This document shows positions 28,394-29,106 of a DNA stretch of 64,000 nucleotides, piece by piece. The notes under the pieces were generated by a model that searched no databases, was not told the DNA's origin, and saw nothing but the letters and a program-made list of their open reading frames with translations. Origin of the DNA: an uncultured Burkholderiales bacterium (lineage in GTDB: Bacteria; Pseudomonadota; Gammaproteobacteria; Burkholderiales; Burkholderiaceae_C); NCBI GenBank assembly GCA_902825995.1, contig CADEDE010000004.1, positions 3,977 through 67,976 of the forward strand, written 5' to 3'. Each line of letters opens with the position of its first letter. Positions within the stretch are counted from its first letter, which is position 1. The position numbers and the translations under genes were made by a program.

Positions 28394-29106
28394 CTTGGAA
28401 TCGCCGACTCGAAGGCCTCGATCAGCGGCCGGATCGCACCCTGCTTCAACTTCAGCGCGGCCTGGTTGACGACCAGGCGCGATGAAATTTCCATGATCGT
28501 CTCGACCTCGACCAGGTGGTTCGCGCGCAACGTGCTGCCCGAAGACACCAGATCGACGATCGCATCGGCCAGGCCGGTCAGCGGCGCCAGCTCCATCGAG
28601 CCGTAGAGCTTGATCAGATCGACGTGCACGCCCTTGTCGGCGAAATGCTGGCGCGCCACGCCGGTGTATTTGGTGGCCACGCGGATGCGCGAGCCCTGCT
28701 TCACCGCGCTGGCGTAGTCGAAATCGGCGCGCGTGGCCACGCTCATGCGGCAGCGCGCGATCTTCAGATCCAGCGGCACATACAGGCCGTCACCGCTGTG
28801 TTCGAGCAGCACATCCTTGCCGGCCACGCCGAGATCGGCGCCGCCGTACTGCACATAGGTCGGCACGTCGCTGGCACGCACCAGCACCACGCGCACGTCG
28901 GGCCGGCTCGTCGCCAGGATCAGCTTGCGCGACGTGTCCGGGTCTTCCTGCACCTCGATGCCGGCCGCTTTCAACAGCGGCAGGCATTCGTCGAGGATGC
29001 GGCCTTTGGAGAGGGCGAGCGTGATCAGGCCGCCCGCCGGGCCACCCCAAGGAAGGCCTGCGCCCCCTTGGGGGGCCGCGAACGCAGTGAGTTTGGGGGT
29101 CGTCAT
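28390..29106 (-). CDS. hisG: ATP phosphoribosyltransferase (short form) with a repeat-derived N-terminal extension
   Basis: 238 aa. The HisG core starts at [14 protein letters not shown]. The first ~26 codons are repeat copy E. The ATG overlaps the murA TGA. Confidence 0.9.
29035..29105 (-). repeat. Family-1 element, copy E (murA stop / hisG start)
   Basis: Minus-strand read: TGACGACCCCCAAACTCACTGCGTTCGCGGCCCCCCAAGGGGGCGCAGGCCTTCCTTGGGGTGGCCCGGCG. Translated as [24 protein letters not shown]. Confidence 0.85.

Follow-up and report, generated by a model that had tools for sequence, protein, structure and literature searches.

Which codon starts hisG when the beginning of its reading frame lies within a repeat? 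We address this question at the murA-hisG junction of a 64,000-nucleotide stretch of DNA from an uncultured Burkholderiales bacterium (GenBank assembly GCA_902825995.1, contig CADEDE010000004.1, positions 3,977 to 67,976), which is called the window below. An initial annotation had placed a repeat copy at this junction and had assigned to it the first ~24 codons of hisG. From its sequence we identify the element at 29026-29106 as a copy of the Beta-proteobacterial repeat element (BRE), belonging to a subfamily which is common in Rubrivivax, Ideonella, Aquincola and related Burkholderiales. We consider it quite likely that hisG is translated from the ATG at 29106 in coupling to the termination of murA, and that HisG thereby gains 26 repeat-encoded residues at its N-terminus.

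The 3' end of murA on the minus strand reads ...GTG GCC GGA TGA, with the stop codon at 29105-29103. The ATG at 29106-29104 overlaps this stop and opens a 238-codon open reading frame (ORF), whose first codons are ATG ACG ACC CCC AAA CTC ACT GCG TTC GCG GCC CCC CAA GGG GGC GCA GGC CTT CCT TGG GGT GGC CCG GCG GGC GGC CTG ATC ACG CTC GCC CTC TCC AAA GGC CGC. Beyond the first codon there is no in-frame ATG, GTG or TTG up to residue 45. The segment T29-R36 is invariant across 15 aligned HisG relatives, and any later canonical start would delete TLALSKGR. The ATG supplied by the element, proposed before as the hisG start, is thus the only canonical start that keeps T29-R36 and is therefore favoured. 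The protein is matched by PF01634 at 1e-54. It has the catalytic domain without the C-terminal regulatory domain, together with the N-terminal LALSKGR, as expected for the short form of the enzyme (HisG-S), and its best matches in the PDB are short-form chains.

The 5' 46 nt of the hisG copy match an intergenic copy of the window (copy A, 5728-5773 on the plus strand) at 89%, and for a 29-mer from copy A the number of chance matches expected in the window is 0. A search of the window with the family profile finds 7 copies in 64 kb, all co-oriented with the local genes. We therefore reject a chance or compositional repeat, given the expectation of 0 for the 29-mer and the profile E-value of 5.5e-15. 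The presence of a repeat copy at the junction is borne out by the junction sequence and the profile, and the identity of the HisG prefix with the element by the match to copy A and the profile. The extent needs correction. The copy ends at 29026, 9 nt further 3' than proposed, because the 3' arm GGCGGCCTG of hairpin 2 belongs to it. It does encode the hisG start, but with 27 codons (26 extra residues and Leu27) instead of about 24. Similarly, copy A was described as nearly identical, which holds for the 5' half, whereas the arms of the 3' hairpin stem differ. Copy A can indeed be read in the same frame as a mini-ORF, the ATG of which forms an ATGA with the stop of the CysZ/EI24-like gene upstream. 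At the other end the TGA of the mini-ORF overlaps the MoCF_biosynth ATG at 5808, again as ATGA.

Comparison of the junction in relatives, proposed in the initial annotation as a check, was made in about 70 related contigs and reveals three states: empty, occupied by a mini-ORF, and fused. The majority of these junctions are empty. HisG homologues are mostly 211-221 amino acids long. At empty junctions hisG always starts with ATG, GTG or TTG 1-5 codons before ITLALSKGR, in agreement with the earlier expectation that short-form HisG begins just before LALSKGR. The commonest empty state is a stop/start overlap, which is ATGA in at least 15 contigs and has the TGATG or ATGAcg form in about 10 more; an example is Aquincola (L004), GCATGATCACG. 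In the closest relative (L126, 94.7% HisG identity) the junction is empty and reads GTCGGC-ATGA-TCACCCTC, i.e. GC-ATGA-TCACC; L003, like L004, also has an element-free ATGA overlap. Hence, the suggestion that the element provides the murA stop and the hisG start stands in part. The ATGA does lie inside the repeat unit, but since L126, L004, L003 and at least 15 others already have it, the element re-creates the overlap rather than newly supplying it.

The family element is found at 11 murA-hisG junctions of other lineages, and there hisG retains its own start. In 10 of the 11 there is a mini-ORF, 17-51 codons in length, whose start lies at -1, +2 or +5 relative to the murA stop. Relative to the hisG start, 7 of these mini-ORFs end at +1, as an ATGA overlap, and the remaining 3 at -2, +4 or -5. 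Contig L059 carries the window-type insertion plus 5 nt (TGATG); its 5' junction is GGATGAC, as in the window, and its copy is near-identical. The sequence is ...GGGAGACCTGTGATGATCACG, with a 27-codon mini-ORF, the TGA of which overlaps the hisG ATG. The in-frame fusion is present in the window and in 4 metagenomic variants (L002/P0001, L207/P0131, L206/P0132 on a 45.8-kb contig, and L001/P0002). All five read GGCGGCCTGATCAC and ...GGCGGCCTG-ATCACG, which is 5 nt shorter than in L059; both the mini-ORF stop and the hisG ATG are missing, which makes mini-ORF and hisG one continuous frame. Each of the five retains an open frame and the ATGA overlap at the murA stop, and the two indels within the extension are of +3 nt (L207) and +27 nt (L001). 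An assembly artefact is ruled out, as the junction is common to five independent assemblies. Orthologues with the same extension but without the repeat had been named as evidence against the idea. Extended orthologues do exist, but their extension is the repeat itself, so this test is inapplicable. Cluster P0002 has 250 members, mostly unextended 212-aa HisG with some HisD fragments, and its size says nothing on the abundance of the fused form.

Two further observations come from other contigs. L005 (1850-2003) and L006, relatives of the window, carry a different, 145-nt BRE-type insert at the murA-hisG junction. The start of its 51-codon mini-ORF (MTHRRSAFGAPP...) lies in the ATGA at the murA stop, and its end reaches 4 nt into hisG (ATGCTGA). 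With independent insertions in many lineages, the murA-hisG junction looks like a hot spot. In the copies at the genome loci L063, L097, L109, L048 and L051 the mini-ORF continues in frame into a long downstream ORF, most of them with a plausible GTG, TTG or ATG. Such run-ons are probably not true fusions and are likely to mislead gene callers; L063, L097, L109 and L048, which have a plausible canonical start at the usual position, were not counted as fusions.

Judging from these junctions, the fusion is a rare derived state, as opposed to the usual separate mini-ORF followed by the gene's own ATG, and is most simply explained by a loss of 5 nt. The ancestral junction would be the ATGA overlap. 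Insertion of a BRE there would give the L059-type state, with murA-TGA/ATG, the 27-codon mini-ORF, TGATG and hisG. In the window lineage the loss of 5 nt would then remove the mini-ORF stop and the hisG ATG and join the mini-ORF in frame to hisG. We infer the direction of this change, and the TGA...TGA microhomology in CTGAnATGATC would favour it. The alternative is a direct in-frame insertion of a 75-nt copy with a 3-nt duplication of TGA and no unfused intermediate, the copy in L059 then being an independent insertion or having gained the 5 nt. It leads to the same translated product. Such a duplication fits the comparison of GC-ATGA-TCACC in L126 with GG-ATGA-[75 nt]-TGA-TCACG in the window, and independent insertions at this junction did occur. 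However, the standard unit of the family ends in a stop plus the gene's own ATG, and the microhomology would favour the loss. Moreover, the window, L001, L002, L207 and L059 share an unusual murA ending, GGA-TGA, and similar spacers (CGAC, CGGC, CAGC), at positions where the empty sites differ, which points to one event. We thus regard the direct route as rather unlikely. What weighs against a firm order of events is the neighbour-joining tree of HisG, which is too poorly resolved to show monophyly of the fused forms or a sister placement of L059, and too shallow to rank the junction states in time. If the 5-nt loss did occur, the empty ATGA junction, the inserted repeat with its mini-ORF and the in-frame fusion would be stages of one event that all survive in nature, a clear-cut example of a selfish intergenic repeat that was incorporated into an enzyme of core metabolism.

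Is the extension translated? Translation is favoured because the coupling overlap is ancestral and retained, and because the frame stays open in five diverged variants, where every indel is a multiple of three. Homology to 5m8h, a solved short-form HisG, begins at chain residue 25 of that structure, and about 24 residues before strand 1 are tolerated in a short-form HisG; the 26 extra residues of the window HisG are probably unstructured. An AlphaFold2 model of the extended protein, built on a shallow alignment of 15 sequences, was poor (mean pLDDT 41) and was not used. Several points weigh against translation of the extension. Changes within it (6 synonymous and 5 non-synonymous, p=0.06) are only suggestive of coding constraint and are confounded by the constraint on the hairpins. 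Its third-position G+C of ~74% (hand count), expected to lie below that of established genes here, is what a young coding segment would show and does not positively support translation. Finally, the CTG at the usual start position could in principle act as a weak non-canonical start.

This last point can be developed into a different reading, in which hisG starts at the ancestral position, at CTG (29028-29026) or ATC (29025-29023). The native protein would then lack the extension, and initiation at the ATG would be irrelevant or minor. The CTG directly precedes ITLALSKGR and sits exactly at the ATG/GTG/TTG codon of the relatives, gene callers are blind to such starts, and the coding signal in the extension is weak. 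Nevertheless, the CTG lies within the 3' arm of a stable hairpin and has no Shine-Dalgarno sequence upstream. Termination-reinitiation cannot feed it, because a ribosome that starts at the ATG translates the CTG as an in-frame codon. In E. coli the initiation efficiency of CTG and ATC is roughly 1% of that of ATG, or less. Together with the ATGA and the open frame preserved in all five fused variants, this makes a CTG or ATC start improbable. Much less probable still is that the hisG of the window is inactive or dispensable, owing to a second hisG or to histidine import, and that the fusion is neutral decay. The window covers 64 kb of the genome, so that a second hisG is possible. Against decay, HisG is otherwise intact, being 89-93% identical to its relatives with all invariant positions retained. 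The bolA-murA-hisG-hisD-hisC context is conserved, and the fused form occurs in five diverged variants from different samples with no disruption of the frame. A third reading makes the main role of the element regulatory, with hairpins that throttle or modulate hisG translation or mRNA stability; it takes up the earlier suggestion that a stable hairpin over the hisG start could affect his operon expression. REP-type hairpins affect mRNA decay and translation in other bacteria, and the absolute stability of the fold in the hisG copy is high (-43 kcal/mol over 85 nt). A hairpin region is present, but it spans +22 to +76, counted from the A of AUG; the predicted fold leaves the AUG unpaired, and its stability is ordinary (z = -0.9 against shuffled sequences with matched composition). 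Compared with L059, the fused copies have an imperfect outer stem in hairpin 2. As the element also adjoins unrelated genes, any hairpin effect would be generic and not his-specific. We therefore find a mainly regulatory role unlikely, though less so than a start at CTG or ATC, and retain translation from the ATG at 29106 as the preferred reading.

Table 1. Positions of the features at the murA-hisG junction and of copy A in the window.
Feature	Position	Strand	Remarks
BRE copy, 81 nt including ATGA, equal to codons 1-27 of the hisG ORF	29026..29106	-	nhmmer E=5.5e-15; aligned with published BREs
ATGA tetranucleotide, murA stop and sole canonical hisG start	29103..29106	-	also the 5' end of about half of the family copies
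Conserved 5' box CCCCAAACTCACTGCGTTCGC; family consensus CCCCAAGCTCACTNCGTTCGC	29078..29098	-	columns invariant in 71 copies (among the matches listed)
Hairpin 1, GCCCCCC-AA-GGGGGC	29062..29076	-	separate hairpin in the L059 fold
Hairpin 2, variable outer stem CAGGCCTTCC / GGCGGCCTG (imperfect here) and conserved inner stem-loop TTGGGGTGGCCCGGCG	29026..29059	-	
CTG codon (Leu27)	29026..29028	-	site of the hisG start (ATG/GTG/TTG) in relatives
hisG ORF, 238 codons, short-form ATP phosphoribosyltransferase	28390..29106	-	Pfam HisG domain at residues 77-233
murA, UDP-N-acetylglucosamine 1-carboxyvinyltransferase, EPSP_synthase family, 422 codons from MDKLL	29103..30371	-	
Copy A, unfused, 27-codon mini-ORF	5728..5811	+	between CysZ/EI24-like gene and MoCF_biosynth (CinA-like) gene

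The repeat family to which the hisG copy belongs has already been described, since four published Bordetella BREs, when reverse-complemented, match the subfamily profile (E about 1e-5) and can be aligned block by block with six of the window copies. BREs are 75-91 bp long, form tandem arrays and are usually intergenic, and their function was left open (Hot et al. 2011, BMC Genomics 12:207, PMC3110155; also PMC3184786). They are multicopy in Bordetella, Polaromonas, Delftia, Acidovorax, Rhodoferax and Azoarcus, and sometimes overlap the ends of ORFs by a few bases or lie wholly in coding sequence (PMC3110155). The Bordetella BRE and the window subfamily share a C-rich 5' box, GCTGCCCCCCGAGGGGGC, a variable arm, CTTGGGCGGCCCG and the complementary arm. 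Both are of the 75-91 bp size class, multicopy in Betaproteobacteria (Comamonadaceae, Alcaligenaceae and Rhodocyclaceae), mostly intergenic with some copies in ORFs, and found in tandem. The window subfamily differs in its 5' box (CCCCAAGCTCACTNCGTTCGC) and has ATG(A) and TGA at its two ends, whereas the outer arms of the Bordetella BRE are terminator-like runs of T and A, with no start or stop codons at its ends. Neither the subfamily itself nor its mini-ORF, start/stop bracketing and coupling geometry are described in Hot et al. 2011 (PMC3110155). The Bordetella BRE also has T6 after hairpin 1 and looks terminator-like on both strands, and the window subfamily, found inside operons, has no such runs; the family may be put to different uses in different lineages.

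A scan for the 5' box CCCCAARCTCACTNCGTTCGC in one genome per species yields at least 119 stretches, which are the basis of the family counts; these counts, here and in the next three paragraphs, are made among the matches listed. The genera with matches include Rubrivivax, Ideonella, Aquincola, Aquabacterium, Rhizobacter, Variovorax, Rhodoferax, Pseudaquabacterium and Thauera. Copies of the subfamily are ~75-80 nt long and lie between co-directional genes. In the typical unit the upstream stop is followed by one nucleotide, ATGA, three nucleotides, CCCCAAGCTCACTNCGTTCGC, nGCCCCCCGAGGGGGCG, an arm, TTCGGRCGGCCGGGCG or TTGGGGCGGCCCGGCG, the second arm ending in CTGA, one nucleotide and the ATG of the downstream gene. 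ATG(A) flanks most copies on both sides. It lies within the repeat unit in about half of ~120 copies and recurs between tandem units, arrays of which are seen in L016, L026, L030, L077 and L125. The base preceding the two ATGs agrees slightly more often than expected (31 of 62 cases against 22), and the flanking ATG(A) could be either a target-site duplication or the element's own. Across the window nothing reaches the gathering threshold of Rfam, and over copy A there are only chance-level matches (E>2). The terminal inverted repeats of a MITE (miniature inverted-repeat transposable element) are not found at the unit ends, ATGAnnnCCCCAAGCTCAC... and ...GGYACTGAn, which are not complementary, and the inverted repeats are internal (hairpins 1 and 2). 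The REP-type GTAG head is absent from the subfamily consensus.

The geometry of the units with respect to neighbouring genes is regular. A co-directional coding ORF ends within 45 nt upstream of 93 of the 119 copies. Among those with a 5' ATG, 53 of 71 stand in a stop-ATG coupling geometry (TGAnATG in 24, ATGA in 17, TGATG-type in 12). The 3' TGA is in frame with the 5' ATG in 54 of 69 copies (p=2.6e-14 against one third). For the 72 copies with a 5' ATG and an identifiable ATG start of the downstream gene, the mini-ORF end at that start is TGAnATG 33 times and ATGA 21 times, i.e. in 75%, and these 54 ends span 30 distinct combinations of offset and length. Where hairpin 1 is 2 nt shorter, the post-ATG spacer is 2 nt longer, which keeps the ORF length at 25 codons. 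As three frames across the invariant core are used, it is the ORF and not the peptide that is conserved.

The structure of the transcript was approached with RNAalifold on a MAFFT alignment of 71 copies, and then with folding of each copy, arm-swap controls and a comparison of sense and antisense strands. RNAalifold returned no consensus structure for the 71-copy alignment, because the variable stem arms were aligned out of register. In hairpin 2 there are 36 distinct 7-nt arms in 64 copies, and the arms co-vary: the own pair folds with -18.5 kcal/mol against -12.9 kcal/mol for chimeric pairs (p=4e-22). The inner stem alternates between TTCGG/CCGGG and TTGGG/CCCGG, a compensatory change. In 59 of 73 copies the sense strand folds more stably than the antisense strand; U.G pairs number 117 and G.U pairs 2. 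This strand-specific structure points to the transcript, or to that one DNA strand, as the target of selection.

We infer a relay function from this geometry. Ribosomes ending the upstream gene would restart on the ORF of about 25 codons, the relay ORF. Its translation would melt the hairpins and bring ribosomes to the start of the downstream gene, so that the two genes would stay translationally coupled despite a BRE insertion. Whether the widespread BRE subfamily is indeed a self-contained "translational relay" cassette we regard as evenly poised. Such a cassette, with its own start and stop, would fit operon junctions without uncoupling them and would be the convergent counterpart in Burkholderiales of the mycobacterial interspersed repetitive unit (MIRU); loss of its stop would create new N-terminal segments. 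Two points weigh against this proposal. The 5' ATG is equally frequent in copies with and without an upstream gene, and is therefore built-in and not selected locus by locus. In addition, the p-values of the geometry overstate independence, because the copies share ancestry. If the proposal is true, stop loss would be a ready route to new N-terminal segments even on a central enzyme such as HisG, and the BRE, reported in 2011 without a function, would have a mode of persistence. The MIRU-like architecture of the subfamily, with its relay ORF, has good statistical support, and the geometry statistics also suggest why BRE copies are tolerated inside operons. For annotation of these G+C-rich genomes the rule would be that starts inside BRE copies usually belong to mini-ORFs, with hisG here as the exception.

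The closest functional parallel is given by MIRU (Supply et al. 1997; reviewed in PMC12548453 and PMC3184786), an operon repeat with a small ORF overlapping the stop and start of its neighbours. According to the published interpretation, this small ORF keeps the genes translationally coupled when a copy has inserted at a start codon (PMC12548453, PMC3184786). Both MIRU and the BRE subfamily are of 40-100 bp, G+C-rich, located in operons with a co-oriented small ORF, and found in tandem arrays. The coupled ends of the small ORF counted above (54 of 72 downstream, 53 of 71 upstream) are of the MIRU type. Unlike the BRE subfamily, MIRU belongs to mycobacterial hosts of a different phylum and does not have the two-hairpin architecture. 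The two were set side by side by description; a relationship in sequence is not expected, and the likeness concerns how the element works and not membership. In-frame fusion of small repeats to genes is known for Rickettsia palindromic elements (RPE) and for ERIC, RUP and BOX (PMC10969869, PMC3184786). As with RPE, a palindromic repeat lies in coding sequence and leaves the gene intact in the window HisG, probably in IleS and, twice, in an M48 peptidase. However, RPE encodes a conserved peptide and inserts inside genes, whereas the peptide of the BRE subfamily is unconserved, and its copies typically sit at stop/start junctions and are captured in frame only exceptionally. With the hisG case, the known capture of small repeats by coding sequence gains a further instance, from a repeat family that is itself known.

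The remaining copies of the window are distributed as follows. Copy A and a tandem pair are intergenic, and the copies at hisG, ileS and the M48 gene lie within ORFs. The tandem pair (22594-22762, minus strand) belongs to the CCCACGCT subfamily, which is the nearest to the published Bordetella BRE, and occupies the gap between a His_biosynth gene (hisA/hisF-like) and ribF. Its first copy begins directly at the His_biosynth TGA, and both copies end in CTGA. In the IleS ORF (17616-20549, minus strand) the copy at 20454-20514 falls within the first ~45 codons, and the synthetase domain begins at residue 60. On sequence grounds IleS is a possible second candidate for a repeat-derived N-terminal extension, and an in-frame TTG within the copy could be the true start. 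The Peptidase_M48-like ORF (31435-33510, plus strand, 691 codons) contains two in-frame copies, at 32309-32402 and 33014-33107, which are 705 nt apart and 97% identical over 94 nt. Each encodes ...LLSAPGPAASRQ(P/A)PRGGQGNLGAARRFLESD, and the first lies inside the M48 profile match.

Downstream of hisG, hisD (26606-28393, minus strand) carries a C-terminal GNAT acetyltransferase domain: the protein has 595 amino acids, with Histidinol_dh at 28-436 and Acetyltransf_1 at 482-576. The same hisD-GNAT fusion is present in L003 (604 aa) and L005 (594 aa), and the hisD products of Aquincola L004 (447 aa) and of L206 (441 aa) are without it.

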